From: a virus
Lineage: Duplodnaviria; Caudoviricetes
IMG/VR virus record: IMGVR_UViG_3300022307_000012
Coordinates: 1-25,494 of that record
Reading direction: 5' to 3' (one strand)
Length of the DNA stretch: 25,494 nucleotides
The notes under the pieces are model-generated. The model saw only the letters and a list, made by a program, of their open reading frames with translations, was not told where the DNA came from and did not search any database. Positions within the stretch are counted from its first letter, which is position 1; every line of letters begins with the position of its first letter. The translations under genes and the position numbers were made by a program. Shown in pieces: positions 1-13,840 of the stretch.

Positions 1-1
1 G

Positions 2-94
2 AGGCAGGATATTCTCGGACGTCCATTCCATACTAATAACATACATGGATTGCTGTGTCGGGGAAAGAGAAGGTACAGGGGTTTAGAAATATAA
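2..94 (+). CDS. 3' end of a hypothetical (cassette-type) gene, truncated by the window edge
   Basis: Frame 2 is open from the window start (RQDILGRPF...GLEI*). Its TAA stop at 92-94 lies inside the ATATAAC box of att-like site 1. Confidence 0.55.
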   Translation, partial: RQDILGRPFHTNNIHGLLCRGKRRYRGLEI

Positions 95-148
95 CGGCAG
101 GCATAACCGGGGAGCGTTAGCGACTCCGAGTTAATGCCATTGTTAGTG
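89..148 (-). repeat. attC-like site 1 (60 bp)
   Basis: ATATAAC-6nt-CATAAC...GTTAATG-5nt-GTTAGTG. The inner stem has extra bases on the 3' arm. Confidence 0.75.
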
Positions 149-170
149 TGATCTTTTATGGAGAATAGAA

Positions 171-470
171 ATGGGTGAAGAGGCAGATTATTTAGAAAGC
201 CAGTCTGATGGCGGTGCTGCTGATGCTATGCGCGAGTATGATCAGCAGGAATATTACAAAGGTCTGAGCAAAAAAGAAGCCAGATATCACGACAATAAAC
301 GCTCTGGTGTTGGCACAACGATTCGTTGCGCTAACTGTGGAAAACGAATTTTGAAGAAGTCGCACCAGACTCAATTTTGCAGAAACAAAGGAAAAGGGAA
401 CTGCAAGGACACTTACTGGAATAATGTGAGCGATACCCGGCGCGAAAGATCGCACAGGTTTTCACACTAA
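171..470 (+). CDS. cassette gene; hypothetical protein with Cys-rich putative Zn-binding motif
   Basis: GGAG RBS, CxxC...C...C pattern, stop in CACTAAC. Confidence 0.75.
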   Translation: MGEEADYLESQSDGGAADAMREYDQQEYYKGLSKKEARYHDNKRSGVGTTIRCANCGKRILKKSHQTQFCRNKGKGNCKDTYWNNVSDTRRERSHRFSH

Positions 471-548
471 CGCTGTATTAACTGGGCCGCTGATAGCCTT
501 AAATAAAAATACGGGGTCTACCGGCTCCAGTTGGATTACTTGTTAGTT
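465..548 (-). repeat. attC-like site 2 (84 bp)
   Basis: CACTAAC-5nt-ATTAACTGGGCCG...CGGCTCCAGTTGGAT-5nt-GTTAGTT. Unpaired G533 and T526 when the + strand folds. Confidence 0.8.
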
Positions 549-560
549 GAGGTGTTAACG

Positions 561-758
561 ATGGAATGGAAACAAAAAGGTTTTGCAGTCGTATCTGTGG
601 CAAGAGCCGGACAAAAGGCAATGCCGATGGTTCATTCTTTTTCCTCTGCTGAATGGGAGGCGCAGAGCGATAAGCGCAAGGCCGAACAATTGCCCGAGAA
701 TTTGCGTGAAGGGCTAGAAATTGTGCCTGCGACATTAACATTTGATATGAGCAACTAA
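561..758 (+). CDS. cassette gene; hypothetical protein (65 aa)
   Basis: GAGGT RBS at 549-553, ATG 561, stop in AACTAAC. Confidence 0.7.
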   Translation: MEWKQKGFAVVSVARAGQKAMPMVHSFSSAEWEAQSDKRKAEQLPENLREGLEIVPATLTFDMSN

Positions 759-808
759 CAAGGAGCTAAGTTGCCGCGATCAGCGGTCTACTTAGCGGGC
801 TGTTATGG
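753..808 (-). repeat. attC-like site 3 (56 bp)
   Basis: AACTAAC-5nt-GCTAAGT...CCGC gatca GCGG...ACTTAGC-5nt-GTTATGG. Unpaired T787; no bulge in the L box. Confidence 0.65.
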
Positions 809-828
809 TAAGTATATCAATAATAGCT

Positions 829-1211
829 ACACAACAAACAAGAGGAGTAGAGATGTGGCATACAAAGAAATGACAGAATACTGGAAAGAGCATGGTATCG
901 AGCCGGTTCAGCAGGTAGTTGTGGCGGCGGCATGCTTTTTGTCACATTGCCAACCTATCCTTGTTGGCGCAAGGCATTGGGATAGCGTGATGCGTGGACA
1001 GTTTGCGGGGATAGAGGGGCGTAGCGCCATTCCTAGTGGGGCATGGAAACAGGGTTTTATTGACCAATTTGGGACATTTCTTACTCGTGAAGAGGCTATG
1101 CAGATAGCGAAAGCGGCGGGGCAAAAGATCGATATTAATCGTGGCTGCGGCGGAAACGATAAAAAGCTTTACAGCGAAGGGCTTTATTAGTCACACAACA
1201 AACAAGAGGAG
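829..1211 (+). repeat. 19-bp direct repeat ACACAACAAACAAGAGGAG (829-847 and 1193-1211) containing an RBS
   Basis: Exact match read from the sequence. The two copies flank one gene. Confidence 0.85.
855..1190 (+). CDS. conserved phage hypothetical protein
   Basis: GAGGAG RBS then GTG 855 (or ATG 870). The G-x-R-H, QGFIDQFG-x-FLTREEA and LYSEGLY motifs recall a recurrent phage hypothetical family. Confidence 0.75.
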   Translation: MAYKEMTEYWKEHGIEPVQQVVVAAACFLSHCQPILVGARHWDSVMRGQFAGIEGRSAIPSGAWKQGFIDQFGTFLTREEAMQIAKAAGQKIDINRGCGGNDKKLYSEGLY

Positions 1212-1218
1212 CGGAGAG

Positions 1219-1401
1219 ATGTACGTGTATATTTTTGAGGACGGGCAAATAAAAACAGCATCAACTTTTGATGATGACGATATGGCAAGCTGTGATATGG
1301 GCGTTATTGATGTAATAGATATTAGTGGAGAGAAGCCGAAACAATACCATAATAATAACTGGCACGACCTAGAGAGCGCGGACGATGCCCGCACAACATA
1401 A
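1219..1401 (+). CDS. hypothetical acidic protein (60 aa)
   Basis: GAGGAG RBS and ATG 1219 within the 1141..1401 ORF. Confidence 0.7.
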   Translation: MYVYIFEDGQIKTASTFDDDDMASCDMGVIDVIDISGEKPKQYHNNNWHDLESADDARTT

Positions 1402-1412
1402 GGAGAGAAGAG

Positions 1413-1637
1413 ATGGCTGGTATCGAATTTATACTTATTATTACAATAATCTTTATTACTGCTTACGCAATAATGAGGTTTTATAGGAATGCTAGCTCTA
1501 TTGGAAAAAAGATGGGCGTTGTGACGCTTCATAAGCCAACACTTGACGATATGAGAGTGTTTAGGGAGTTGGGGTACAGACTAAGCCACGACGAAAGCTA
1601 TGGAATACTAGGGATGCATGGGGCTAAAAATCGATGA
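1413..1637 (+). CDS. hypothetical protein with N-terminal TM helix
   Basis: AGGAG RBS, hydrophobic N-terminus, ATGA overlap with the next gene. Confidence 0.7.
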   Translation: MAGIEFILIITIIFITAYAIMRFYRNASSIGKKMGVVTLHKPTLDDMRVFRELGYRLSHDESYGILGMHGAKNR

Positions 1638-2011
1638 AAAAGTGGGTGATAAACGATCCCCAAATACGCTCTAATGCCGCCAATGCTGTTATGGCTATAC
1701 GTGGGGAGGATAACTTAGAAGTCATCATTCAGGAGCATAAGGAGAGCAAGAGCGGGGAGCAAAGGGGTTTCTGGCACGTTTTAATCAAGATTATCAGCGA
1801 TGATACAGGATATCGCCCTGATGAGGTCAAAGAGATGCTTAAAAAGCGGATACTCGGCACTAGAGAGATTAAAATCGGCGGGTTTCAAACAGAGGTAACG
1901 GTAAGCTCAGAGTCGAGGGATAAAGTCGGATATTCTGAATTGATCGAGCATACCTACCAATTAGCGGCAGAGGCTGGGATTGTGCTTCCGTCATCCAGAT
2001 ATAACGGATAG
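1634..2011 (+). CDS. ninB: NinB/Orf-family recombination protein
   Basis: NinB-like pattern (R-x-NA...KS-x-EQ..WH..I..IS...KE..K...ELIE...AAE-x-GI) immediately upstream of ninG. Confidence 0.7.
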   Translation: MKKWVINDPQIRSNAANAVMAIRGEDNLEVIIQEHKESKSGEQRGFWHVLIKIISDDTGYRPDEVKEMLKKRILGTREIKIGGFQTEVTVSSESRDKVGYSELIEHTYQLAAEAGIVLPSSRYNG

Positions 2012-2072
2012 GATAGATAGAGATGTTAAAGCGCGATGGGGTTGATTCTAGCGGGTGGTATTGCTAAAAATA

Positions 2073-2648
2073 ATGAAAAAACCAATTAAGCAGAAAACCT
2101 GTAAAATCTGCAAGGAGAAATTCACCCCTTTTCAGCCGTTGCAATCTGTCTGCACCAATAATGGCTATGCATGCGCCAGAGAGTTCGCCAACAGACAAAG
2201 AGAAAAGCAGATCAAGAAAGAGAAAAAGGAGTTTAACGCCGAAACAAGGCGGATGAAGGAAAAGATCAAGACCAGAAAGCAATGGGCTGAGGAGGCTCAG
2301 GCCGCGTTTAATAAGTTTATTCGGCTAAGGGATGCGAGAGATCCGTGTATTAGCTGCGGAACCACCGACCAGAATATCCAATATTGCGCAGGCCATTATA
2401 AAACGAGAGGGGCATACCCTGAGCTACGCTATGAGGAATTGAACGTACACAAACAATGCAATAAGAACTGCAACCTTCACTTATCTGGCAACATAATCAA
2501 CTACAGGCCGCGTCTAATCGAAAAGATAGGGATTGATAAGGTTGAATGGCTGGAGGGTCATCACGAGCCTAAAAAGTACACCATAGACGACCTAAAGCGA
2601 CTAAAGGCGACTTATAACAAGAAAGCAAAAGAAATAGTAAATAAATAA
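2073..2648 (+). CDS. ninG: NinG/Rap-family endonuclease
   Basis: CxxC N-terminus, AQAAFNKFIRLRD..PCISCG, AGHY..RGA.PELRY.E.N.HKQC..CN.HLSGN...Y...LIEKIG...VEWLEG. Alternative GTG start at 2055. Confidence 0.92.
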   Translation: MKKPIKQKTCKICKEKFTPFQPLQSVCTNNGYACAREFANRQREKQIKKEKKEFNAETRRMKEKIKTRKQWAEEAQAAFNKFIRLRDARDPCISCGTTDQNIQYCAGHYKTRGAYPELRYEELNVHKQCNKNCNLHLSGNIINYRPRLIEKIGIDKVEWLEGHHEPKKYTIDDLKRLKATYNKKAKEIVNK

Positions 2649-2652
2649 TAAA

Positions 2653-2696
2653 TATGCGTGAATAGCATTGACAGTTACGCATAAAAAGCCTAAGCT
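2653..2696 (+). promoter_or_regulatory. sigma70 promoter with flanking inverted repeat (candidate operator)
   Basis: TTGACA 2668-2673, 17 bp spacer, TAAGCT 2691-2696. TATGCGT (2653-2659) and ACGCATA (2677-2683) bracket the -35. Confidence 0.7.
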
Positions 2697-2731
2697 AAGG
2701 CATCTTAAATAAAATCAGATGGAGAGAGAAG

Positions 2732-2989
2732 ATGGTTAAGTATAGGACGGAGGATAATTTTTATGGAGAGTTAATCGAGCCTGTAGAGGTTGAGCGCGAA
2801 ACCGCTTCAAGCGTTTGGATTAATGGTAGGAGAAACGCAAAAATAACAGACTGGCGTTGCTACCATGATACATGGGGCGAAGCTAAAGCGTATCTCCTTA
2901 AATTGGCAGAGTCCAAGTTAAATTCTGCGCGAAGATCTTTAGAGTTGGCGCAAGGCACTTACGGAAACGTAAAAGGCTTGAAGCAATGA
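2732..2989 (+). CDS. phage hypothetical protein
   Basis: GGAG RBS; VERETASSVWINGRR motif seen in small phage early proteins. Confidence 0.75.
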   Translation: MVKYRTEDNFYGELIEPVEVERETASSVWINGRRNAKITDWRCYHDTWGEAKAYLLKLAESKLNSARRSLELAQGTYGNVKGLKQ

Positions 2990-3144
2990 AAAGTCAAAAG
3001 CCATCAGCGGTAGCCAACCGAGCAAAGCGCAACAAGATGCGCGAAGAGGGGCGAGTAAAGGTGAGTTACTTCATTATGCCAGACCAAAAAGAGCGGGCGA
3101 ATAATTATATGCTAACCCGTCTAAAAGCAGTTAAAGGTAGCTAA
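2986..3144 (+). CDS. small basic protein, possible ribbon-helix-helix DNA binder (52 aa)
   Basis: Read by hand: MKSQKPSAVANRAKRNKMREEGRVKVSYFIMPDQKERANNYMLTRLKAVKGS. ATGA-coupled to the previous gene. Confidence 0.6.
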   Translation: MKSQKPSAVANRAKRNKMREEGRVKVSYFIMPDQKERANNYMLTRLKAVKGS

Positions 3145-3180
3145 TAACATGGGCAGATGATAGTCCATAAGGAGATTATA

Positions 3181-3573
3181 ATGGGTGAATTATTTAACAA
3201 TTTAACAATAGCATTAACACCGTCATCCGAAGATATGGCGATGATTAAGGCAACAGAGGATTTTTTCATGGAGGCGTTCGCAACACCAAGCATTGAAGAT
3301 TTTAATATAACTATTATCTCAACTACTGAGGCAAGGATTTACTATACCCTCGGAGATGAAGAGGTTGAAAGTATCGTTGATATTAACGCCAACTATTCGC
3401 CTAGAGAGCCTATGACATGGGAATACCCCGGATCACCGCCTGAGGCATGTATAGAAGAGGTGTTTGGGCTATCGGTATCTGAGAGGCATGAGTGGGATAA
3501 ATGGATGGGGGAGAATGATATAGAGCCAGATTTGCTGTACGCATTTGAAGGAAAAGACGATGACAGATTCTAA
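3181..3573 (+). CDS. acidic hypothetical protein
   Basis: AAGGAG RBS then ATG 3181. Confidence 0.75.
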   Translation: MGELFNNLTIALTPSSEDMAMIKATEDFFMEAFATPSIEDFNITIISTTEARIYYTLGDEEVESIVDINANYSPREPMTWEYPGSPPEACIEEVFGLSVSERHEWDKWMGENDIEPDLLYAFEGKDDDRF

Positions 3574-3679
3574 TGAAGAGATAACAGAAGAAGATCAAGA
3601 CGCTATTGATTACGCATGGGGTGAAGCCTGTTCTCAGCCCGATCTGGTAGATAACTATGAAGATAGAAGAGGTGAGTAA
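3560..3679 (+). CDS. small acidic hypothetical protein (39 aa)
   Basis: MTDSNEEITEEDQDAIDYAWGEACSQPDLVDNYEDRRGE; TAATG coupling to the next gene. Confidence 0.45.
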   Translation: MTDSNEEITEEDQDAIDYAWGEACSQPDLVDNYEDRRGE

Positions 3680-4416
3680 TGGACATTGAAGAGCTTAGAG
3701 AGCCACTTAGAATCGAGCAAATTGATTTTAGAGTGCAGTCTATCAATAAAGGCGGATATGCAACCATACTGGCATACAAGGACGCTAGGGTGGATATGAA
3801 TCGCCTGAACGCTGTGTTCCCGCTCAAATGGCAGCGAAAGCAGGAATCTATCAATGGGCGACTGTTTTGCTCGGTTGGTATTTACAATGACGATATTAAG
3901 GAGTGGGTGTGGGTTCAGGATGTTGGCACAGAATCAAATGCCGAGAAAGAGAAGGGGCAGTCCAGCGACGCATTTAAGCGAGCATGCTTTAACCTTGGGA
4001 TAGGTATTGAGCTTTACGATTACCCCCAGATTAGCGTGAAGCTGCGCCAAGACGAATGGGAGATGCGAAAAGGGAATGATGGAAAAGAGCGCCCTTCTGC
4101 AACATGGAACCTAAAGCTAAAAGAGTGGATGTGGTATTCCGATTTCGAAGAAGGAAAGATCTCGCGCCTTGTAGCTGTTGATTCAACAGGATCAACTAGA
4201 TTTGAGTGGGGAAGAAAGCTGCCAATCACGCCAAAAGTTAATATTAACCCAAAAGCGAAAAAGGAATTCGTGGTACAGGTAAAGCAATGCCTAGCTGATG
4301 CTGATGTAGAAGGTCTTAATGAGCTATTGTCTGAGTGGGATGCAGACGAAAAGGCCGTGCTTTGGAAGGAGTTTAATTCTCAACAACGTGCAGCAATTAA
4401 AGATTTAACAAAATAA
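3679..4416 (+). CDS. Rad52/22-family (Sak-like) single-strand annealing protein
   Basis: LAYKDAR..MNRL..V..W...CSVGI...W.W.QDVG.ES..EKEKG..SDAFKRA....GIG.ELY; followed by an SSB-like gene. Confidence 0.85.
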   Translation: MDIEELREPLRIEQIDFRVQSINKGGYATILAYKDARVDMNRLNAVFPLKWQRKQESINGRLFCSVGIYNDDIKEWVWVQDVGTESNAEKEKGQSSDAFKRACFNLGIGIELYDYPQISVKLRQDEWEMRKGNDGKERPSATWNLKLKEWMWYSDFEEGKISRLVAVDSTGSTRFEWGRKLPITPKVNINPKAKKEFVVQVKQCLADADVEGLNELLSEWDADEKAVLWKEFNSQQRAAIKDLTK

Positions 4417-4442
4417 TACCAACCAATAGAGGAAATAGAAAG

Positions 4443-4775
4443 ATGGCAAAACAACGACTAGCAATTAAAGTTGGCGAATACCAAGATAAAAACGACCCGA
4501 CGAAGATGAAGGGCGAATATGTGAAGCTCGGCGTAATGCTCGACGGGCAGAATGGGGCATATATCCTGATAGATCCATCGGTAAGCCTTGCCGGATGCTT
4601 GCAAAAACAGAACATGATGAACCATCGTGCCGGAAAAGAGGTTCGGGATACTCTTATGGTGTCAGTATTCGATGATCAGCAGCAAACCCAACAGCCCAAT
4701 GACTACGCCCCACAAGGATCGCCGAATAATTACGGCGGATCTCCATCGAATGGATCTGACGATACGCCGTTCTAG
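4443..4775 (+). CDS. phage single-stranded DNA-binding-like protein
   Basis: Compact N-terminal domain, Q/G/P-rich linker, acidic DDTPF C-terminal tip, position after the SSAP gene. Confidence 0.7.
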   Translation: MAKQRLAIKVGEYQDKNDPTKMKGEYVKLGVMLDGQNGAYILIDPSVSLAGCLQKQNMMNHRAGKEVRDTLMVSVFDDQQQTQQPNDYAPQGSPNNYGGSPSNGSDDTPF

Positions 4776-4783
4776 TCTGGAAT

Positions 4784-4813
4784 AAAAAAAGCCCCTCTGA
4801 TGAATGAGGGGCT
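4784..4813 (-). terminator. Rho-independent terminator (minus strand, possibly bidirectional)
   Basis: GCCCCTC/GAGGGGC stem with an A7 run on its left, giving U7 on the minus-strand transcript. Confidence 0.8.
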
Positions 4814-4837
4814 AAGGAGATGAATGGAGATTCATTG
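4784..4837 (-). ncRNA. candidate ~55-nt sRNA with CUCC/CUCCUU motifs
   Basis: Minus-strand TTGTAT-17-TATTAT promoter directly upstream, terminator at its end, no substantial ORF. Confidence 0.45.
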
Positions 4838-4843
4838 TTAGCG

Positions 4844-4892
4844 ATAATACCCCATAATGGATATTGATACAAATAATCTGTTGGTATATTTT
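4844..4892. promoter_or_regulatory. overlapping divergent sigma70 promoters
   Basis: Minus: TTGTAT (4872-4867), 17 bp, TATTAT (4849-4844). Plus: TTGATA (4864-4869), 17 bp, TATTTT (4887-4892), or extended -10 TGgTATATT. Confidence 0.5.
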
Positions 4893-4897
4893 TTATT

Positions 4898-4963
4898 GCA
4901 TAACGCTTGCGATAACGCGACTGAGCCGCAAGGCGAAGGTCGCTGTTAATTGCGTTGTTAGTT
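4898..4963 (-). repeat. attC-like site 4 (66 bp)
   Basis: GCATAAC...GCGATAACGCGAC...GCCgcaaGGC...GTCGCTGTTAATTGC...GTTAGTT. Unpaired T4944 and A4948. Confidence 0.8.
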
Positions 4964-4987
4964 TTCGACTTAAACGGAGATGAGAGC

Positions 4988-5161
4988 ATGAGAATAGATA
5001 AAACTGAACACGGTGTAACTTTGTGGGACGACAACAATAAATGGATATTAGACGCCTCAACAGTTGCTGATGATGGTGAGATAACGATTGATACAAAGGC
5101 TTTTGATATTAAGTACAACACCAAGAAACAGAGGATGGTGCTGAAACTCAAAGAAAACTAA
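4988..5161 (+). CDS. cassette gene; hypothetical protein (57 aa)
   Basis: GGAG RBS, ATG 4988, stop in AACTAAC. Confidence 0.7.
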   Translation: MRIDKTEHGVTLWDDNNKWILDASTVADDGEITIDTKAFDIKYNTKKQRMVLKLKEN

Positions 5162-5242
5162 CGCCATACTAAAGCGGCCGCACGATGCCACAACCACGGA
5201 GCCGAGAACTATCACGGCTCGATTTTAAGTTAATTGTTATAT
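5156..5242 (-). repeat. attC-like site 5 (87 bp)
   Basis: AACTAAC-5nt-ACTAAAGCGGCCG...CGGCTCGATTTTAAGT-5nt-GTTATAT. Unpaired A5227, A5222 and T5219. Confidence 0.75.
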
Positions 5243-5256
5243 TCAAGGTAAGCCGT

Positions 5257-5478
5257 ATGCAAAGGGTATCTAAAAAGAAAAGGAAGAAGCAGCGTAAAGC
5301 GGTTGGCTATGAGGAGCAGCCTGCAACGTGCCGATCTTGTGTTAACTATGAAGGCGGCCTTGTAGTGGATGGCTGTAGATACCAAATGAGGTGCGTGCTA
5401 CACGAGTTTGGGGTTAACCCAAGTGCTGTTTGTAATGATTGGGAAGATCGAAGTGGCGCTGTGCTTGAGAGAATATAA
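5257..5478 (+). CDS. cassette gene; small basic Cys-rich (CxxC...C..H...C) protein
   Basis: AAGGT RBS, ATG 5257, stop in ATATAAC. Confidence 0.7.
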   Translation: MQRVSKKKRKKQRKAVGYEEQPATCRSCVNYEGGLVVDGCRYQMRCVLHEFGVNPSAVCNDWEDRSGAVLERI

Positions 5479-5597
5479 CGGCTTGGCTGAGAGGCAGCAA
5501 GCCACACTTAACTTAAACAAAACCGATGGAGACTATGAGCATGAAAAATTTTAAACAAACATCGCGGCTTGCTGTCCTTTCTAGCCTGTTGTTAGGT
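5473..5597 (-). repeat. attC-like site 6 (125 bp), overlapping the start of the lipoprotein gene
   Basis: 19-bp stem GGCTGAGAGGCAGCAAGCC / GGCTTGCTGTCCTTTCTAGCC with unpaired T5575 and T5582; ATATAAC and GTTAGGT boxes. Confidence 0.8.
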
Positions 5598-5780
5598 GCC
5601 TTTGCACTGAGCGGGTGCTCAACTGGAGACAGACCGATGACAGACGCTGAAGATATTAAAACGCGATGCCTTGATGGGGTTACTTATTACCTCTATCGGG
5701 AAACGGCAGGATATTCGGGTTACGGATACATGAGTGTTAAATTTAACCGCGACGGATCAGTGAATACTTGTGGCACCTAA
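5541..5780 (+). CDS. cassette gene; putative lipoprotein
   Basis: GGAG at 5528-5531. MKNFKQTSR n-region, hydrophobic h-region and LSGC lipobox. Stop in ACCTAAC. Alternative starts at 5526 and 5535. Confidence 0.75.
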   Translation: MKNFKQTSRLAVLSSLLLGAFALSGCSTGDRPMTDAEDIKTRCLDGVTYYLYRETAGYSGYGYMSVKFNRDGSVNTCGT

Positions 5781-5839
5781 CGACCATGCTCACCGGGGCG
5801 AAGCGAAGCGTAGCATCCGTGTGGTGCTAATTGTTATAT
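5775..5839 (-). repeat. attC-like site 7 (65 bp)
   Basis: ACCTAAC-6nt-GCTCACCGGGGC...GCGAAGC...GCATCCGTGTGGTGC-5nt-GTTATAT. Extra bases on the 3' arm. Confidence 0.75.
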
Positions 5840-5859
5840 TTTTATTGAGGAATTTAGAG

Positions 5860-6102
5860 ATGCTTAGAACAAGCGAAGAACCAAGAAAGGCTGCAGCAGA
5901 GGCTCAAAACTATTGCGAAGTGAGCCTTGGTTATCATGTCGGGGCGATGCTGGTTATTAAGTTGCGAGACAACTGGAAAGAGAGGGTTTACAGAATAGGA
6001 TCTCAACAGGGATGTAACAGTTACCGTGTTGGCGATGTTAATAATGGAAAAGGGTTTAATTTTTATCCTTCCATTCACCCGCATGAGTTCGTTGAAATAT
6101 AA
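5860..6102 (+). CDS. cassette gene; hypothetical protein (80 aa)
   Basis: GAGG RBS, ATG 5860, stop in ATATAAC. Confidence 0.7.
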   Translation: MLRTSEEPRKAAAEAQNYCEVSLGYHVGAMLVIKLRDNWKERVYRIGSQQGCNSYRVGDVNNGKGFNFYPSIHPHEFVEI

Positions 6103-6115
6103 CAGTGTGTTATAC
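6097..6115 (-). other. minimal palindromic recombination core (attI-like simple site)
   Basis: ATATAAC-AGTGT-GTTATAC closes array 2. Confidence 0.55.
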
Positions 6116-6140
6116 GTCTTATGCAAGGTGTAGGATTAAA

Positions 6141-6153
6141 AATCAATGACTTA
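6141..6153 (+). promoter_or_regulatory. IHF consensus site
   Basis: AATCAATGACTTA matches WATCAANNNNTTR exactly. Confidence 0.45.
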
Positions 6154-6242
6154 CAAAGATAATAGGAAGGCTAGAGAGCTATGGTCAAAACAGGCTGTAG
6201 TGAAGAAAGTCGCTCTTACCCAAGATTTAGGAGAATGGAATA

Positions 6243-6572
6243 ATGAGCATTAACGAAGAACAGATAGATAAAGGCAAAAAGCTAACAAGTAGAGTGCCAT
6301 ACCGGGAAGCCTTCCAGCGTGGAGCTAGTTCTAGGGATGATGAGATTGAATTGTTACAGCTAGAGAACAAAGCGCTAAAGAATCGGGTTGAGAGGCTTGA
6401 GAGGGCGATGGACATAGATATTGTTGAGTATGTTAGCAATGAGCTTGACTCTGTTGAAACTGACAATATAAGAGCTTGCTCATTTCTTGCAGGCGCAGTT
6501 AAACAGGCGCGAGCTATTAAGAGTAAGCTCCTATCCCAACACAATACAGATAAGGAGAATGGACATGGGTGA
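6243..6572 (+). CDS. hypothetical coiled-coil protein
   Basis: AGGAG RBS; heptad-like central segment. Confidence 0.7.
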   Translation: MSINEEQIDKGKKLTSRVPYREAFQRGASSRDDEIELLQLENKALKNRVERLERAMDIDIVEYVSNELDSVETDNIRACSFLAGAVKQARAIKSKLLSQHNTDKENGHG

Positions 6573-6756
6573 TTGGATTAGTGTTGGGGATAGGTTGCCC
6601 GATAATGAGGTTCTATTAACGAACGGAATAACTCATCTGATTGGGTACGTTAATGATGAGCTGATGGGCGAAAGTGAATACGAGGTACTTCCAGGAGTAA
6701 CCCACTGGATGCCTCTACCAGAACCACCCAACACAGACAGCAAAGGAGAGAAGTGA
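6565..6756 (+). CDS. DUF551-domain protein
   Basis: WISVGDRLPD...VTHWMPLPEPP signature; AAGGAG RBS. Confidence 0.85.
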   Translation: MGDWISVGDRLPDNEVLLTNGITHLIGYVNDELMGESEYEVLPGVTHWMPLPEPPNTDSKGEK

Positions 6757-6965
6757 TAATGAGTAAAGGAAGTAACAGGCGACCATCACAAGTCCCTCAT
6801 ATTCATGAGGCTACTAATTGGGCTATGGCATTCGGTGAAAAATGGCAAGCGAAAGACATGGAAGGAAATGAGCTGGCAGTAGGAAAGACTTACGAAGAGG
6901 CGAGAGATAAGGCGCTAGCTACTACACCGGATGATCTTACATTTTCCATCATAAGAGTAAGATGA
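6753..6965 (+). CDS. phage hypothetical protein
   Basis: AGGAG RBS, GTGA coupling, MSKGSNRRP N-terminal motif. Confidence 0.7.
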   Translation: MIMSKGSNRRPSQVPHIHEATNWAMAFGEKWQAKDMEGNELAVGKTYEEARDKALATTPDDLTFSIIRVR

Positions 6966-6976
6966 TATAATTAACT

Positions 6977-7159: not shown

Positions 7160-7166
7160 AATTGTT

Positions 7167-7529
7167 ATGGCTAGAGGACGACCTACAGACTATACTCAAG
7201 ATATTGCCAATAAGGCATGGGAATATGTTGATAATTACGAGAATCATGGTCATGCGATCCCTAGCGTAGTTGGTCTATGTAAAGTATTAAAGCGTGGAAA
7301 ATCAACCATTTACGATTGGGCTCAAGACGAAGAAAAAGAATTCTCGGATATATTAGCCGCTATTAATGAAAATCAAGAGCTTGTAACATTCAATAAGTCT
7401 CTTACTGGGGACTATAATCCAACTATAGCAAAGCTCCTACTAGGCAAGCATGGATATCATGATAAGCAGGATGTTAATGCTTCGGTAAGGGAAGTGTCTC
7501 ACGAAGAATGGCTTGACTCGCTTGAGTGA
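7167..7529 (+). CDS. terminase small subunit (P22 gp3-like DNA-packaging protein)
   Basis: MARGRPTDY, PS..GLC..L...KSTIYDW (HTH-like), G.YNPTIAKLLL..HGY.DKQ; directly upstream of TerL. Confidence 0.85.
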   Translation: MARGRPTDYTQDIANKAWEYVDNYENHGHAIPSVVGLCKVLKRGKSTIYDWAQDEEKEFSDILAAINENQELVTFNKSLTGDYNPTIAKLLLGKHGYHDKQDVNASVREVSHEEWLDSLE

Positions 7530-9054
7530 AGAAAACAAATCAAAACACCAAAGGCTAAAGGATGATTTTTTATTCTACGCCAGAAACTGCCTAAAGATCC
7601 GAACAAAGAGCGAAGGAACTAAACCATTTATTCTCAACAAGGCTCAAGAATACATCCATGACCGCCTTGAGAGGCAAAGAGAAGAAACCGGCAAGGTTCG
7701 AGCGATAATACTCAAGGGGAGGCAACAGGGAGCGTCAACATACATTGGCGGTCGCTTTATGTGGCGCGTTACCCATTCAAAAGGCGTTAGGGCGTTTATC
7801 CTCACACACGAAGATGATGCAACTCAAAACCTATTTGATATGTCTAAGCGGTATTATGAGCATCTTCCTGAGTTCGTAGCACCTGAAAGAAGCTCAAGCA
7901 ATGCAAAAGAGCTTATATTTAATAGGTTAGATTCAGGGTATAAGGTAGGAACAGCAGGAAATAAGTCAGTAGGAAGATCGCAGACTAATCAATTATTTCA
8001 CGGGTCAGAGGTAGCCTTTTGGCCTAACGCAGCAGAACATGCAAAAGGGATCTTGCAGACTGTTCCTGATGCTCCAGATACAGAAGTTATCTATGAATCA
8101 ACAGCTAATGGGGTTGGGAACTTTTACCACATACAGTGGAAGCAAGCAGAGGCCGGGCTAAGTGACTTTATAGCAATATTTGTCCCTTGGTTTTGGCAAG
8201 AGGAGTACGCTAAGAGTGTTCCTGCTGGATTTTTCCCTGATGATGAGGAGACGGATCTTATATCTCAGTATGGGCTTACTGTAGAGCAGATATATTGGAG
8301 AAGGTTAAAAATAGTTGAGCTATCATCTGACGGAACCGACGGAACCGTATCGTTTATGCAAGAGTACCCAATGAATGCAGCAGAGGCATTCCAAACTACC
8401 GGCGCTGATGGGCTAATAAAGGCTGCTCCTATTGTAAAAGCAAGGAATACTAAAGTTAATGGGTCTGGGGCGCTAATAGTTGGGGTAGACCCCTCAAGAG
8501 GAGGGGATAGGTTTTCTACCATCAAAAGGCACGGGAGAAAGGCTTACGGCCTAAAGAGTTGGAAGGGCGATGCTGTAGACTCGCTCGGAAAGGCTGTATC
8601 AAAATGCAAGGAGATACTCGACGAGGTAGATGAAGAGGCTGGGAAAGTCCCAGATATGATGTTCATTGATGCCGGGGGCGGCGCTGATATTGTTGATCGC
8701 CTGCATGAGCTTGGATACTCTGATAGGGTGAAGGCTATATATTTCGGTGCCTCGCCATTAAACAGCAAGAAGTATATTAATAAGCGCGGCGAGATGTGGG
8801 GGACATACAACTTATGGCTTAACGATGAGAATATGGAGGTTGAGCTTCCAGATAGTGATAGCCTTCAAGCTGATTCGTGCGCATCTCCATATAGTCGAGA
8901 TAGTCATGATAGAATAGTACTATGGAAGAAAGAGCGGATAAAAAAAGAGTATGGCTTTTCTCCAGATGAAGGCGATGCTATAGCCCTTACTTTTGCAGAG
9001 CCAGTTAATTTAGATAAAGCCGTCGAGCTTGAGTTTGATTCACTATGGAATTAG
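7513..9054 (+). CDS. terminase large subunit
   Basis: Walker A-like ILKGRQQGAST, FHGSEVAFW, YESTANG coupling motif, nuclease IVGVDPSRGGD and SPDEGDA. Start codon uncertain. Confidence 0.95.
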   Translation: MTRLSEENKSKHQRLKDDFLFYARNCLKIRTKSEGTKPFILNKAQEYIHDRLERQREETGKVRAIILKGRQQGASTYIGGRFMWRVTHSKGVRAFILTHEDDATQNLFDMSKRYYEHLPEFVAPERSSSNAKELIFNRLDSGYKVGTAGNKSVGRSQTNQLFHGSEVAFWPNAAEHAKGILQTVPDAPDTEVIYESTANGVGNFYHIQWKQAEAGLSDFIAIFVPWFWQEEYAKSVPAGFFPDDEETDLISQYGLTVEQIYWRRLKIVELSSDGTDGTVSFMQEYPMNAAEAFQTTGADGLIKAAPIVKARNTKVNGSGALIVGVDPSRGGDRFSTIKRHGRKAYGLKSWKGDAVDSLGKAVSKCKEILDEVDEEAGKVPDMMFIDAGGGADIVDRLHELGYSDRVKAIYFGASPLNSKKYINKRGEMWGTYNLWLNDENMEVELPDSDSLQADSCASPYSRDSHDRIVLWKKERIKKEYGFSPDEGDAIALTFAEPVNLDKAVELEFDSLWN

Positions 9055-9058
9055 TACA

Positions 9059-11173
9059 ATGCCAGATTATAACAGTCATGAAACAGTATTAAAGCTACTC
9101 TCTACAGACCAAGAGCCGGAAGTAGATAACCGCGCAAAAGTCCGTGAGGTTACACACTTCACAGAGAAGGAGGACGGACAATGGGAGCCTGACGTAGTCA
9201 GCAATATGTCTGGACGACCTAGATACACGTTCGATAAGTGTAATCCTGTCATCGACTCCATAGCCGGGGAAATTGAACAGGCTGATTTTGGCATCAAGGT
9301 TCGTCCAGCCGGAGGAGAGTCGACAAAAGACCTTGCCAAACTATATAGCGGAATAATTAGAAATATTCAATCAATGTCAGATGCCGTCAATACGGTATTT
9401 AATCCAGCAGCTCGTCAGATGACGACGGCCGGATTTGATGCGTGGCGTGTTACTCAGGAATGGGGTGATAGCGACTCATTCGATCAAGATCTGTTTATTC
9501 GCAAGATATCAAACCCTGCTGACAGAGTGTGGTTCGACTCAGGGGCAGAGCTTCAAAACATGAGCGACGCTAGGCATGCGTTCGTTCTTCATGCTGTAGT
9601 TAAAGATGAGTATATGGAAAGATGGCCTGATGGTAAATGTTCATCTGTTGGCGACGCTAGGGACGAGACAGTTTATTACTATAAGCCAGACTTCGTTATT
9701 ATCGGAGAAATCTTATATAAGAAAGAGACTACAAAAGAGCTTGTATTGATGAGCAATAACGCGGTCTATGAGGACGATGAGAAGTTCCAATCCGTCGTGG
9801 ATGACCTTCTTGCTAACGGCATTAAAGAGGTTAGACGCAGAAAGAGCAAATCACACATTGTATTTAGCCGTAAGTTTGATAACGATGGATGGCTTGAAAA
9901 TGAAGTAGAGACGGTATTCGATTACATTCCTGTCATCCCTGTTTATGCCAACTTTAAGGTGTCAGAGAATAAAGTGATTTACCGTGGAGCGATCAATACC
10001 ATGATGGACTCTCAGCGCGTATACAATTATGCTCAGAGCCGAGCCATTGAGGAGGGGGCCTTATCGCCTAGAGGCAAGTATTGGATGACTAGAGAGCAGG
10101 CTAAATTAGATAAAGCCACGCTTGATACGATGAACACCAACGCCAATCCAGTGCAAACATATACCCATGTAGAAGGACATCCTCCACCATTCTGGCAGGG
10201 AGGCGCACAGATTAACGCTGGATTACAGCAAACAGCCGCCGATATGTCGGGCAATATCATTGAATCGTCTGGGGTATTTGCTGCTAACCAAGGCAACGCG
10301 CCTCAACAGTCAGGTGTTGCTATAGAGTTGCAGCAGAACAAGGGTGACAACTCAACGATTAAGTATTTCAAATCACAAGAGATCGCCATTACTCATACAG
10401 CAAGGATTATTGTCAACGCAATCCCTAAAGCATACGATACAAAGCGCATTGTTAGGATTATTGGCGAAGATGGAAGCTCTAAAGAAGAGACTATCAACGA
10501 CGAGATCTACGACCAAGAGCAGGGTAAGATGGTCGCATTAAATGATATCAGGAAGGGCAAATATGACGTTACTTGCGATGTTGGCCCAGCCTTTAAATCA
10601 CGACAACAGGAAACAGCTAGGGCGTTCCTTGATGCGGCTACTATTGATCCGTCGTTACTAGAGTTTGGGAAGGACATCTGGCTAAGCAATCAAACGGCTC
10701 CCGGATTCGATGCTATGGCAGAGAGAGCCAGAAAGAAGCTTCTGGAGAATGGAGAAATACCAGACGATCAGATGACCGACGAAGAGAAGGAGCGGGCTCA
10801 AGCATTAATAGAGCAGGCTCAAGCAGAGCAGGAAGCAGCGGCAAACCAAGAGCCGTCCGTTATGGATCAGGCTATTGTAGAGCAAACGCAGGCTAATACA
10901 GCCGATGTTGTGAGTCGAGCCAATGAGCGCAATACAAAGGCCGCTCTATCTCAAGAGAAACAAGACTTTGAGGAACTGAAATACGCGCGAGAGCTAGACC
11001 TTAAAGAGCGTAAGATGATTATTGATATGCTTAATACACAAGCCCAAACCCTAAAAACAATCAAGGATAGTATGGGGGTTGATACGATTGTTGGTGAAGG
11101 GAATGTAGATACCTACGCAGAACAAGTCGATGCGGTTGGCGACACCCAAGAAATGATTCCAGATGAGGACTAA
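9059..11173 (+). CDS. portal protein (P22 gp1-like)
   Basis: About 700 aa after TerL; GQW, RPR.TFD, IPVIPVY, DSQRVYNY, SGVAI, GKYDV..DVGPAFKSRQQE; coiled-coil C-terminus. Confidence 0.93.
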   Translation: MPDYNSHETVLKLLSTDQEPEVDNRAKVREVTHFTEKEDGQWEPDVVSNMSGRPRYTFDKCNPVIDSIAGEIEQADFGIKVRPAGGESTKDLAKLYSGIIRNIQSMSDAVNTVFNPAARQMTTAGFDAWRVTQEWGDSDSFDQDLFIRKISNPADRVWFDSGAELQNMSDARHAFVLHAVVKDEYMERWPDGKCSSVGDARDETVYYYKPDFVIIGEILYKKETTKELVLMSNNAVYEDDEKFQSVVDDLLANGIKEVRRRKSKSHIVFSRKFDNDGWLENEVETVFDYIPVIPVYANFKVSENKVIYRGAINTMMDSQRVYNYAQSRAIEEGALSPRGKYWMTREQAKLDKATLDTMNTNANPVQTYTHVEGHPPPFWQGGAQINAGLQQTAADMSGNIIESSGVFAANQGNAPQQSGVAIELQQNKGDNSTIKYFKSQEIAITHTARIIVNAIPKAYDTKRIVRIIGEDGSSKEETINDEIYDQEQGKMVALNDIRKGKYDVTCDVGPAFKSRQQETARAFLDAATIDPSLLEFGKDIWLSNQTAPGFDAMAERARKKLLENGEIPDDQMTDEEKERAQALIEQAQAEQEAAANQEPSVMDQAIVEQTQANTADVVSRANERNTKAALSQEKQDFEELKYARELDLKERKMIIDMLNTQAQTLKTIKDSMGVDTIVGEGNVDTYAEQVDAVGDTQEMIPDED

Positions 11174-11340
11174 TCCTCCTCTAGTTTGTATTTAAGTCCA
11201 CGACACATGCTAATAAGCTGGTTCCTTAACCGCTTGTTATTGCACCGCCTGTTGTATGTGTCGTATGGAATCCCCCAATAATTACAGGCTTCTTTAACTA
11301 GCCATCCCCTAGAATGTATTGTTCTTGTGAATTCGTTCAT
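11170..11340 (-). CDS. small HTH/Cro-like protein (56 aa)
   Basis: Read by hand: MNEFTRTIHSRGWLVKEACNYWGIPYDTYNRRCNNKRLRNQLISMCRGLKYKLEED. Confidence 0.6.
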   Translation of the reverse strand: MNEFTRTIHSRGWLVKEACNYWGIPYDTYNRRCNNKRLRNQLISMCRGLKYKLEED

Positions 11341-11348
11341 TATTTAGT

Positions 11349-11516
11349 TTAAGGATTTATGTTGTATGACGCGAATTCCTTGTCGTCACCGCTTGATGAT
11401 ATAGATATGTCAACTCTTTTTATTTTACTAGACGACTTCATTATAGCAATCACCAATTCGTTCATTAGTTGTTTTACTTCTTTTTCGTCAAGAACTTTAG
11501 ATATGTCTATGTCCAT
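11349..11516 (-). CDS. hypothetical protein (55 aa)
   Basis: Read by hand: MDIDISKVLDEKEVKQLMNELVIAIMKSSSKIKRVDISISSSGDDKEFASYNINP; in tandem with 11170..11340. Confidence 0.55.
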   Translation of the reverse strand: MDIDISKVLDEKEVKQLMNELVIAIMKSSSKIKRVDISISSSGDDKEFASYNINP

Positions 11517-11728
11517 CAATATTTCTCAGTCACTTTAATTATACCCATAATCGCCACCCCAATGATTTAAGTCTTTGGTAAAGAAGAATAGCCTCATATC
11601 TCCGACAAAACCTCGTTATTAGCACGATAAAACCTCTATCTATCAACAGTCTACCACAAATTTTATAATATAACCTACACAGTACGCGACTTTATCGCGG
11701 ATTATTACTCGAAAGAGGCAGAAATATT

Positions 11729-12547
11729 ATGAGCGAGCTACAGACTGAGTCGGTTGATGATGGAATTACCCTTGATAATGATCATGTCGAGGATATTGAA
11801 AATCAACAGCAAGACGAAGGAACCGTTGAAAGCGGATCGGATTTAGCCACCGAAGCTGAGGAAAAACAGGATAAAGCACAAGATGGTGTGCAGAAGGCGA
11901 TTAATAAGCAGCATGCTAAATTCAAAGAGGAGGAGCGTAAACGCATCGCCTCAGAGGATGAGGCTAGAGAGCTTAGAGAAAAGCTAGAAGCTATTGAGGC
12001 AGAGAATGGTGATGTAACTATTCCGCCTATGCCGGATGCCTATGATGAAGATTTTGATCAGAAGGTAGCGGCAAGAGAAAACGCCATCAGGCAGCAAGCG
12101 GTACGTGATGCGCAACAAAGTGTTATAGCAGAACAGAAGGTTGCTGCCAAGAAAGACGAGGAAAGAGCAGAGCAAGATCGGATTAACTCGCTTGTAAGTG
12201 GGTATGAAAAGAGAACGGCTTTACTCGGACTTGATGCAAATGAAATATCGAAAGCTGGTGATGTTGTGGTTAGTTACGGTATAGCGGGAGAGTTGGCAGA
12301 ATTCATCCTTAATGATGACGATGGCCCACTTATCACAAAATACTTAGCAGGTAATCCACTTGAATTGGATGATTTGCGAAATATGCCGATCACACAAGCC
12401 ACTATTAAGATTAATTCAACCATCAGGGAATCCGCGTCAGCAATGAAACCGCAAGCATCGACAGCCCCAGATCCAGTGGAAACACTACAAGGTCGTGGAG
12501 CAAGCGAGAAGGTAGACCCCTTTATTGCCGGTGCTACATTTACATAA
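11729..12547 (+). CDS. scaffolding protein
   Basis: Acidic, coiled-coil 272 aa between portal and coat; GP.I.KYLA.NP and APDPV motifs. Confidence 0.85.
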   Translation: MSELQTESVDDGITLDNDHVEDIENQQQDEGTVESGSDLATEAEEKQDKAQDGVQKAINKQHAKFKEEERKRIASEDEARELREKLEAIEAENGDVTIPPMPDAYDEDFDQKVAARENAIRQQAVRDAQQSVIAEQKVAAKKDEERAEQDRINSLVSGYEKRTALLGLDANEISKAGDVVVSYGIAGELAEFILNDDDGPLITKYLAGNPLELDDLRNMPITQATIKINSTIRESASAMKPQASTAPDPVETLQGRGASEKVDPFIAGATFT

Positions 12548-12565
12548 TATTTTTGGAGTAGTAAA

Positions 12566-13840
12566 ATGGCTAATAATTTTGACTCAAACTTTACGCGACA
12601 GCTCGCTAAGGTTTTCGTAAAGAAATTCGAGACTAATCGAGTTCTTTCTAAAAACGTCAACACTCAATTGCTTAAAGGGCGATTCAGTGAGGATTCAGGG
12701 GAGAACGTTGATTTTAAACGCCCAACTGACTATATCTCGCAGCGAACAGCGGGCGGTGATATTTCAGGAACTACCGCAAGCTCTATCATCACAGGTAAAG
12801 CTACAGGTACAGTCCAGAACTATTTTACCGTAGAGGTAGATTATTCTGAGGCAGATGAAGCGCTTAAGATGGGTCAAATTGACCAGTTGCTGGCTCCTAT
12901 GGCGACACGTATTGTGACTGACTTGGAGCTAGATTTCGCATCATTCATGATGAAGAATACCGCACTCCTTAATGGCACATACGGAACTGCTGTAACTACA
13001 TGGGATCATGTGGCTGGTGCTGGTGCTGTAATGGAATCTAGCGGCGTACCGATGGATGATGATTGGATTTATGCTGTAAATCCTTACACTAAGACATCAC
13101 TAGCAAGCAATCAGCGTTCATTGGGAGCTGGTGGTTCAGCCGGTGAGTTGATTTCTAAAGCCCATCAACGAGCCATTCTGTCTGATAACTTTGCTGGTAT
13201 GAAGGTTATGAGTGCAACATCTCTGGCATCGTACACCTCAGCAACTACTGGTGACTTGGTGGGATCGCTGTCAGCGACCCCTACAGGCACGTATGTTGGC
13301 GCTAAGGATACAATGACGCAGAGCCTTGCCGTAACTGGTTTCGGAACTTTCACTGGAACTATTCCAGCCGGAACAAACATTCAGGTAACAGGCCGTAACC
13401 GCTTAAACCTTTCGACTCGTAACCCCATCATTAATGCGGCTGGAGCTAACATCCTATGGACTGCTACAGTGACGGCTGACGCATCGCTGACTACTGGTGC
13501 GGGTACGTTGGTTGTTACTGGTCCGGGAATCTTCGAGGCTGCTGGTCAATACAATACTGTTGACTCTGCTTTAACCTCTGGTGATGTTGTGACCATTCTT
13601 GGTGCAGATACTACCCTGTATCAGCCTAACCTATTCTGGCATAAGCAAGCGTTCTCAATTGGATCAGTCCCTATCAAGAAGCTGAATTCGACTGACACCC
13701 TTGCTACCACAGAGGATGGGTTACAGATGCGCGTATCTAAAGGTGTGAGCTTCCGGGAGAACAAGCAGATTGTTCGCTTTGACTTCCGTCCTGCTTACGC
13801 GGTACTTAATCCATTCTTCGCCGGTCAAGGTTGGGGATAA
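12566..13840 (+). CDS. major capsid protein (P22 coat family)
   Basis: MANN start, 424 aa, PNLFWHKQAF and VRFD...Y.VLNP C-terminal motifs, followed by a terminator. Confidence 0.93.
   Translation: MANNFDSNFTRQLAKVFVKKFETNRVLSKNVNTQLLKGRFSEDSGENVDFKRPTDYISQRTAGGDISGTTASSIITGKATGTVQNYFTVEVDYSEADEALKMGQIDQLLAPMATRIVTDLELDFASFMMKNTALLNGTYGTAVTTWDHVAGAGAVMESSGVPMDDDWIYAVNPYTKTSLASNQRSLGAGGSAGELISKAHQRAILSDNFAGMKVMSATSLASYTSATTGDLVGSLSATPTGTYVGAKDTMTQSLAVTGFGTFTGTIPAGTNIQVTGRNRLNLSTRNPIINAAGANILWTATVTADASLTTGAGTLVVTGPGIFEAAGQYNTVDSALTSGDVVTILGADTTLYQPNLFWHKQAFSIGSVPIKKLNSTDTLATTEDGLQMRVSKGVSFRENKQIVRFDFRPAYAVLNPFFAGQGWG

Follow-up and report, generated by a model that had tools for sequence, protein, structure and literature searches.

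In bacterial integrons, the purpose ascribed to attC strand choice is insertion of cassettes in the orientation expressed from the Pc promoter (PMC5027507, PMC2727003). The R boxes of a given cassette pair with each other over 9-11 nt (PMC2727003), and the making of cassettes is described as largely unknown (PMC5371416). Arrays of attC sites in phages have already been published, and those of phage PH101 were recombined by IntI1, better as bottom strands (PMC9892861). The results, tables and legends of that paper carry no remark on the direction of genes relative to attC. No description of cassette genes reversed relative to their attC sites was found in the literature searched.

The window, a viral contig of 25,494 nt analyzed over its whole length, is part of a phage genome. 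Judged by its gene content, the host element is a tailed, P22-like phage. It carries two attC-type arrays of three sites (array 1, which touches the contig end) and four sites (array 2), 4.09 kb apart. All seven hairpins were classified as attC-type by a strand-symmetric rule-based detector and a covariance model.

89..148, minus strand: hairpin A, attC-type, 60 nt; unpaired bases 16, 20 and 24; covariance model 29.5 bits
171..470, plus strand: cassette 1 gene, 99 aa, PHROG 8162 (a phage family with four invariant cysteines); predicted unit 95-470; own-end boxes 142-151 and 462-471, exact run of 10 nt
465..548, minus strand: hairpin B, attC-type, 84 nt; found by detector, fold and covariance model
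561..758, plus strand: cassette 2 gene, 65 aa, no family; predicted unit 471-758; own-end boxes 542-549 and 752-759, exact run of 8 nt
753..808, minus strand: hairpin C, attC-type, 56 nt; unpaired base at position 16 missing; weakest covariance match, E 0.09
1634..4775, plus strand: backbone block separating the two arrays, with NinB, NinG, an Erf/Rad52-like annealing protein and a small gene
4898..4963, minus strand: hairpin D, attC-type, 66 nt; opens array 2
4988..5161, plus strand: cassette 3 gene, 57 aa, no family; predicted unit 4904-5161; own-end boxes 4957-4966 and 5153-5162, exact run of 10 nt
5156..5242, minus strand: hairpin E, attC-type, 87 nt; found by detector, fold and covariance model
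5257..5478, plus strand: cassette 4 gene, 73 aa, cysteine-rich; predicted unit 5162-5478; own-end boxes 5236-5244 and 5471-5479, exact run of 9 nt
5473..5597, minus strand: hairpin F, attC-type, 125 nt; contains the cassette 5 start codon
5526..5780, plus strand: cassette 5 gene, 79-84 aa, weak PHROG 7772; predicted unit 5479-5780; own-end boxes 5591-5600 and 5772-5781, exact run of 10 nt
5775..5839, minus strand: hairpin G, attC-type, 65 nt; found by detector, fold and covariance model
5860..6102, plus strand: cassette 6 gene, 80 aa, no family; predicted unit 5781-6102; own-end boxes 5833-5841 and 6095-6103, exact run of 9 nt
6097..6115, minus strand: end site H, an R box, a 5-nt spacer and an inverted 7-nt box; no hairpin
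7170..13840, plus strand: P22-like packaging and head genes (terminase small and large subunits, portal, coat)

The small gene of the backbone block probably encodes an SSB, given its position and acidic tail. Two IntI queries revealed no integron integrase in the contig, which is incomplete. The locus as seen on this partial contig fits the definition of a CALIN, namely same-strand attC sites, at least two within 4 kb, and no neighboring integron integrase; intI adjoining the array, as in a complete integron, was found in a related array (L228, see below) and not here. An Rfam search of positions 1-7500 returned a single chance-level match and no family, and a DNA search of annotated phages with positions 1-7000 matched only NinG and a short DUF551-type stretch. 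Among the 80 closest Erf relatives, a clear array was present in L001 only. As for the cassette genes, the one in cassette 4 had no homologue except itself among proteins of similar length, and the Atlas look-alikes of cassettes 2 and 6 all scored below 0.9, none with a named function. The cassette 5 product is predicted to be a lipoprotein from its hydrophobic leader ending in Cys, read by eye. Its N-terminus is encoded in the right arm of hairpin F, a layout that is identical in contig L173.

The attC pattern tested comprised an L-box stem, an unpaired spacer of 5-6 nt and an R'' arm with unpaired bases at 16 and 23/24 and a 6-bp stem between them. On the minus strand, A, B, E, F and G displayed the full pattern, D had positions 16 and 20 only, and C lacked 16. 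Hairpin B is a textbook case by the rule of PMC5027507, with G16 and T23 unpaired on the plus strand and a 6-bp stem between. TAAC and GTTA occur in 7/7 sites, and the outer letters of the RYYYAAC and GTTRRRY boxes fit loosely. The G usual at position 16 of attC is found in only 2/7 sites, which counts against the explanation that we favor. The right box of hairpin C (802) has no downstream partner of at least 7 nt. A giant cassette running from 802 to 4904 is not supported, as only 6 nt pair and four further downstream boxes pair too. Array 2 has a hairpin at its start and none at its end, where site H lies. On the minus strand, site H reads TAA, 6 nt, GTT, like the Shewanella attI printed in PMC9892861, and we infer that it may be an attI-like landing site. 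Short sites before intI in L327, L329 and L331 resemble it, but are one base shorter. A Pc-like promoter match (10/12, minus strand, 6188-6159) would read the cassette genes antisense; there were 9 such matches against 14 expected by chance.

The earlier note made no mention of the direction of the sites relative to the genes. The strand-symmetric detector (background of 0.05 matches per shuffled window) placed the attC top strand on minus in 7/7 sites, versus plus in 16/16 Vibrio control sites. A covariance model built here from 23 canonically oriented attC sites matched 7/7 sites on minus and none on plus, with E from 0.0003 to 0.09, these E-values being rough. The spacer letters agree: AA follows the left AAC in 16/16 control sites versus 1/7 here on plus, whereas 6/7 of the present sites have TT directly before the right GTT, which is AA on the minus strand. 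The hairpins contain four G-T wobbles on plus and none on minus. Folding energies differed little between strands, with minus favored for site B, and were too close to decide polarity. In a canonical cassette the gene lies on the attC top strand, with attC behind it and expression from Pc; here 6/6 genes are on the bottom strand. In each of the six units the folding site sits before the gene and on the coding strand, the opposite of the bacterial layout. Since the sites are on minus and the genes on plus, the coding strand is the predicted recombining strand, and a crossover is therefore predicted at each stop codon (TAA↓C). The TAA of a unit's own box ends the plus-strand open reading frame in 6/6 units. 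Reversal extended beyond this locus, with 51 of 60 cassette units reversed in a motif scan of viral contigs. The published sites of P12002L, jenny 12G5 and 3/49 escaped the rule-based detector, which is therefore conservative, and the polarity of these sites lies outside this result.

The claim that the two boxes of each unit are exact reverse complements was confirmed for all six pairs, over runs of 8-10 nt as in canonical cassettes. By run length, own-unit pairing was the single best of 720 permutations; with boxes of fixed length scored past the invariant GTT, 4, 2 and 1 of 720 permutations reached it for 7-, 8- and 10-nt boxes, respectively. Cassettes 4 and 6 have a near-identical box and cross-pair over 8 nt. 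The two boxes of a standing hairpin had been said to mismatch right after TAAC/GTTA, which is true of six of the seven hairpins but not of 465-548, which pairs 6 nt. Circularization in silico gave a modeled circle junction more stable than the integrated site for 6/6 units. The same end pairing, over 8-11 nt, occurred in 13/13 scored units of the Vibrio array, these units having been pre-filtered for pairing of at least 7 nt. The earlier note had regarded the pairing as the strongest evidence for mobility. Pairing, however, is the normal state of cassettes and reveals cassette design rather than present-day mobility; being standard, it carries little weight by itself. Nor can it tell which hairpin goes with which gene. 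The reading as integron cassettes was nevertheless supported by the attC anatomy, the stabler circle junction and the occurrence of two of the six genes (cassettes 1 and 5) elsewhere as cassettes with different neighbors.

We therefore propose, with a probability of about 0.75, that these are phage integron-type cassettes whose attC hairpins lie on the strand opposite to the bacterial one and which would be excised and inserted by an integron integrase. The mobile unit would consist of hairpin, ribosome-binding site and gene, cut at TAA↓C of its own stop codon, and the integrase would act on the folded coding strand. On circularization, the stop-codon box would pair over 8-10 nt with the box before the same gene, completing the recombination site. 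New cassettes may enter at site H. The host, a co-infecting phage or an ancestral phage would supply the integrase, and the genes would be transcribed from the phage early transcript rather than from Pc.

Comparisons with related loci bear on these boundaries. In L173, the homologue of cassette 5 has retained the hairpin upstream, which beats all 141-142 background hairpins, over the non-coding 35 nt as well, and has not retained the downstream one. An unrelated cassette in four contigs likewise keeps its upstream hairpin, with divergence within one base of TAA↓C, and L117 and L171 are 100% identical until a TAA↓C and differ beyond. As a single query against viral contigs, cassette 1 gave one weak locus. 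Cassette 5 had no match in annotated phages, and the rule-based detector found no hairpin pair around the gene in its 17 viral-contig homologues. The pattern of hairpin B's family matched 0 viral stretches, and that of hairpin G's family two, neither carrying a gene of this window. In L228, a Sedimenticola prophage, a homologue of cassette 1 (81%) belongs to a reversed array, behind which comes a TIGR02249 integrase (407 bits against a cut-off of 265), and relatives of this integrase have minus-strand attC sites upstream in 5/6 viral loci.

It is unlikely that the arrays are fossils that arrived as cassettes and are now moved only by phage homologous recombination (Erf/Rad52-like protein, NinB, NinG), with the hairpins serving as short homology and gene leaders. 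The contig without integrase, the recombination genes between the arrays, the degenerate hairpin C with its unit lost and the exchange of hairpins for other types among homologous cassettes all agree with this account. So does the lack of matched boxes at 90 of 93 homologue loci of cassette 1. Against it, all six end pairs are still perfect, and the boxes vary between homologues yet stay paired, as seen for cassette 5 in L173 and for cassette 1 in L252 and L253, which argues for recent use or selection. The fossil account is compatible with the reversed design, and the dispute is limited to present activity.

A rather improbable account, which gene orientation taken by itself would favor, is that each cassette takes its downstream hairpin along and that the cut falls in the right-hand box, at G↓TT on plus, by top-strand recombination or by a recombinase with the opposite strand choice. 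Top-strand recombination does exist at lower frequency (PMC5027507, PMC9892861), and the closure of array 1 by hairpin C, with no matched unit behind it, fits downstream ownership too. The cassette 1 pair contradicts the predicted unit boundaries: cassette 1 has the downstream hairpin in common with L228 (its score of 0.39 is the best of 141, the next being 0.36), whereas the upstream hairpin is not shared (0.14, a score reached by 52/142), and the DNA match, from 142 to 558, begins precisely on the G of the 142 box. However, the match extends about 10 nt beyond the next G↓TT, which downstream ownership does not predict, the breaks in cassette 5 and four other contig comparisons fall at TAA↓C, and unpaired bases, spacer letters and covariance model all indicate minus-strand polarity.

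It is highly improbable that the hairpins are RNA-level elements between early genes (terminators, RNase III sites or leader hairpins) and play no part in DNA recombination, and as a sole role this is already largely refuted. In its favor, the hairpins separate co-oriented genes and are on the transcribed strand, parts of 3/7 pass a loose terminator scan, and PH101 and other phages likewise place hairpins in small-gene regions, but such self-contained stem-loops with a U tract and no link between hairpins are not what was found, and they would predict neither pairing between boxes of different hairpins (1/720), as the earlier note had rightly argued, nor unpaired bases at attC positions 16, 20 and 23/24, nor TAA↓C breakpoints and an adjacent integron integrase in relatives.

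Returning to reversed cassettes moved by an integron integrase, their polarity matters because attC strand choice is held to serve the expressed orientation behind Pc. A bacterial integron would leave reversed cassettes silent, whereas a phage early operon would express them, and the reversed build would set a phage pool apart from the bacterial one with chemistry common to both. More tentatively, and with some doubt, phages may maintain a mirror-image pool of integron cassettes of their own, derived from ordinary phage genes. A stop codon with C behind it would itself be a target box, with attC placed before the gene and the ends matched anew. Reversal would put the genes on the early transcript and still keep the recombining strand on the coding strand, which would be the lagging-strand template when transcription and replication share direction. 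The cassette 1 family, whose members occur both as ordinary phage genes and in cassettes that differ in their matched ends, would then offer snapshots of cassette birth, and in any case it is material on which the making of cassettes can be tested.

Compared with bacterial integron cassettes (class 1, Vibrio; PMC2727003, PMC5027507), this locus has the same RYYYAAC/GTTRRRY boxes, unpaired spacer of 5-6 nt and unpaired bases 16, (20) and 23/24 on one arm, site lengths of 56-125 nt, a single short promoterless gene per unit and own-end pairing over 8-10 nt. It differs in that the genes are on the attC bottom strand, with the hairpin first and the stop codon in the predicted crossover box, in the scarcity of G at position 16 (just 2/7 sites), in cargo from phage protein families where a family was found and in a contig without integrase. 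The CALINs of virulent phages (TJE1, PH101, P12002L; PMC9892861) also combine clustered attC sites and small genes without integrase. By our analysis, covariance model included, PH101 has the reversed layout, its sites being antisense to their three annotated genes, whereas TJE1 has the canonical orientation; the present phage differs from these in being P22-like and in having two arrays and a putative attI-like end site. In attG insertion (Loot et al., bioRxiv 10.1101/2022.09.11.507474), integrases can place cassettes, in either orientation, into short GWT sites that lie outside integrons. Such insertion could seed arrays in phage DNA, but it flips the whole cassette rather than the gene relative to its own attC, and site H, with its inverted second box, is closer to attI. 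Finally, inverted-integrase integrons of the Treponema type (Cury 2016, PMC4889954) have integrase and cassette genes co-directional, as in L228; in the Treponema type, intI is flipped relative to attC, whereas in L228 intI and attC keep their regular opposite arrangement and it is the cassette genes that are flipped.

Hairpins and plus-strand genes alternate in two arrays of the window, as follows (strands of hairpins are those of the predicted attC top strand).

89-148, minus: hairpin A, array 1
171-470, plus: cassette 1
465-548, minus: hairpin B
561-758, plus: cassette 2
753-808, minus: hairpin C
4898-4963, minus: hairpin D, array 2
4988-5161, plus: cassette 3
5156-5242, minus: hairpin E
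5257-5478, plus: cassette 4
5473-5597, minus: hairpin F
5526-5780, plus: cassette 5
5775-5839, minus: hairpin G
5860-6102, plus: cassette 6
6097-6115: site H, no hairpin; R box and inverted box separated by five bases

The window hairpins are attC-type sites with reversed polarity relative to the genes. According to PMC5027507, attC sites have unpaired bases at position 16, at 23 or 24 and in some cases also at 20, all on the R'' arm and accompanied by a 6-bp stem; cutting takes place on the bottom strand, within the R' box. When the minus strand is read, hairpins A, B, E, F and G match this pattern, hairpin D has 16 and 20, and hairpin C lacks 16. A strand-symmetric detector, written after the window had been inspected, found exactly seven sites in its 25 kb, every top strand being minus, with a background of 0.05 matches per shuffled window (20 shuffles). 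The same detector found 16 sites, all plus, in L099, a Vibrio anguillarum chromosomal array that phage Va_90-11-286_p16 carries. This count is that of the supplement of PMC9892861, with whose oligonucleotides the strand calls for PH101 attC1, PH101 attC2 and TJE1 attC2 also agree; its aadA7 control identifies the bottom strand. The 23 canonically oriented sites behind a covariance model comprised 11 of L099, two of TJE1, one beside a class 1 integrase and nine at viral loci, these nine oriented by our own rules. The model placed 7/7 window sites on the minus strand and 0 on the plus strand, and the letters adjoining the boxes indicate the same polarity.

With the attC top strand minus and the genes plus, recombination is predicted to use the coding strand and to cut at TAA|C. 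The TAA of the end box terminates a plus-strand ORF in every unit. Conserved proteins support plus-strand coding of cassettes 1 and 5; in the five units scored, so do ribosome-binding motifs and purine content.

The start and end boxes of each unit (142-151/462-471, 542-549/752-759, 4957-4966/5153-5162, 5236-5244/5471-5479, 5591-5600/5772-5781 and 5833-5841/6095-6103) match as exact reverse complements, the runs being 10, 8, 10, 9, 10 and 9 nt, respectively. Among the 720 possible start-box/end-box pairings, none but the own-unit one reached its total; with boxes of fixed length scored only beyond GTT, the observed score was reached by 4, 2 and 1 of 720 permutations at 7, 8 and 10 nt. The earlier note took this pairing as the footprint of circular intermediates and the strongest evidence for mobility. 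Its integron-cassette reading holds in that the arrays are genuinely of attC type, but the end pairing alone is ordinary for integron cassettes: it spans 8-11 nt in 13 L099 units, those that passed a threshold of 7 or more paired bases, and most cassettes self-pair over 9-11 nt according to the accessible text of PMC2727003. The early mismatch of boxes that it described within the standing hairpins occurs in six of seven (4 nt paired), but not at 465-548 (6 nt). When the units were circularised in silico and folded, as it had proposed, the modelled circle junction was more stable than the integrated site on the plus strand in 6/6 (for hairpin A, -18.2 versus -10.0 kcal/mol in unconstrained folds). 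The greater stability of these modelled junctions is compatible with a circular intermediate, yet it is expected, because extra base pairs are added, and junction folding is uninformative as to which hairpin belongs to which gene.

Several comparisons of sequences would make the upstream hairpin a gene's own. Array 2 begins at hairpin D and has no hairpin at its other end, site H, whose minus-strand spacing is that of the Shewanella attI given in PMC9892861; similar sites, one base shorter, precede intI in L327, L329 and L331. A cassette 5 homologue (L173, 44% identity) has other neighbours, different yet matched boxes and the same long upstream hairpin, the start codon lying within it. The upstream hairpins of this pair outscore all 141 background hairpins, including on the non-coding first 35 nt, whereas the downstream ones do not. 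A cassette of other phages keeps an upstream hairpin in 4/4 contigs and has a downstream one in 1/4, with divergence within a base of TAA|C, and contigs L117 and L171 are 100% identical until a TAA|C and unrelated beyond. A 64-nt stretch completing an attC hairpin (L171:1483-1546) is absent from the otherwise identical L117, and the two also differ in cassettes after position 2809. Two observations speak against upstream ownership. Cassette 1 and the 81% homologue carried by L228 have the downstream hairpin in common (best of 141, narrowly) but not the upstream one, and no matched unit follows hairpin C at the end of array 1. Any one of three processes would explain this contrary evidence: homologous recombination that passes on whole blocks, repeated use of one common type of hairpin, or occasional top-strand events.

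The window, a single incomplete contig, belongs to a P22-like tailed phage: genes for terminase, portal, coat and tail accessory functions follow from 7170 on, and the stretch that separates the arrays holds NinB, NinG and an Erf/Rad52-like gene. Two cassettes have a family match, cassette 1 to PHROG 8162 (E 1.5e-20) and cassette 5, weakly, to PHROG 7772; cassettes 2, 3, 4 and 6 have none. Among 93 cassette 1 homologue loci (own record excluded), the gene lies between matched boxes in three (L228, L252 and L253; runs of 10, 9 and 8, three different box sequences) and lacks them in 90, including six at 59-69% identity, so the family is both a plain phage gene and a cassette.

Other features surround the arrays. 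Box 86-95, preceded by a TAG stop, equals box 6094-6103 over 10 nt, and positions 1-95 are probably a seventh cassette cut off by the contig end. Directly after hairpin C, a 33-nt direct repeat (821-853/1185-1217, 85%) with a ribosome-binding site lies on either side of gene 855-1190 (PHROG 839). The right box of hairpin C (802-808) and the left box of hairpin D (4898-4904) pair over 6 nt, with the 4.1-kb NinB/NinG/Erf block between them. Both arrays may derive from a single one, a weak indication as four other boxes pair too. Positions 4806-4843, between a terminator and hairpin D, form a short inverted repeat, imperfect and recognised by eye, whose last element is a GTTA box at 4837; it is possibly a decayed site.

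Viral contigs were scanned with an attC motif devoid of gene information, giving 121 loci from 24/64 collection parts; flanks were available for 80, of which 44 had a hairpin score of at least 10. Of 60 distinct units (own-end pairing of at least 7 nt, shorter ones dropped; some loci overlapping or close kin), 51 were reversed, 6 canonical and 3 ambiguous; by locus, 23/28 were reversed, 4 canonical and 1 tied. The gene-direction rule is heuristic, calling the 13 L099 units 8 canonical, 3 reversed and 2 undecided. The closest Erf relative (L001) carries a reversed array behind an ssb gene. PH101 (L105:30919-32987) has four attC sites, and the three annotated genes in between are antisense to them; two of these sites were tested and recombined by IntI1, bottom strands more than top (PMC9892861, accessible text). 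TJE1 is canonical in polarity. Reversed cassettes in L183, L178, L144, L118, L128 and L129 have hairpins closely like the aadA7 attC of that supplement, and thus one hairpin family serves both polarities.

Two integron integrase queries found no integron integrase in the window (E 1.2 and 0.53 at best). The lambda-like prophage L228 of Sedimenticola selenatireducens has repressor, CII-like, primase and helicase genes, and includes this locus:

L228:9900-14800: seven reversed cassette genes, own integron integrase and adjoining separate phage integrase

The array stops just ahead of the integron integrase (TIGR02249, 407 bits), which keeps the regular opposite arrangement relative to attC, the cassette genes pointing to it. 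Relatives of this integrase have minus-strand attC sites upstream at 5/6 viral loci, the sixth being without upstream DNA. For the window arrays, the integrase probably acts in trans, has been lost or lies beyond the contig.

Genes transcribed along the direction of replication have their coding strand as lagging-strand template. Given such co-directional transcription, the reversed layout would allow expression from the phage's early transcript together with easy folding. In the accessible text of PMC5371416, attC folding and excision are higher with the bottom strand as lagging-strand template, an orientation that most chromosomal integrons avoid. A minus-strand promoter-like match (10/12; such matches are no commoner than chance) lies at 6188-6159, immediately to the right of site H. 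Together with a minus-strand terminator at 4813-4790, at the other end of array 2, it would frame an antisense transcript across the whole array.

Both own-end pairing and attC arrays of phages have been published. No description of phage cassettes with genes antisense to attC was found in full-text searches of the open-licence literature, judged by listed titles and the openings of abstracts, subscription papers being largely outside it. As far as their accessible parts describe them, the attG sites and inverted-integrase integrons of 10.1101/2022.09.11.507474, PMC4889954, PMC13323075 and 10.1101/2022.02.06.479319 differ from the reversed phage cassettes.
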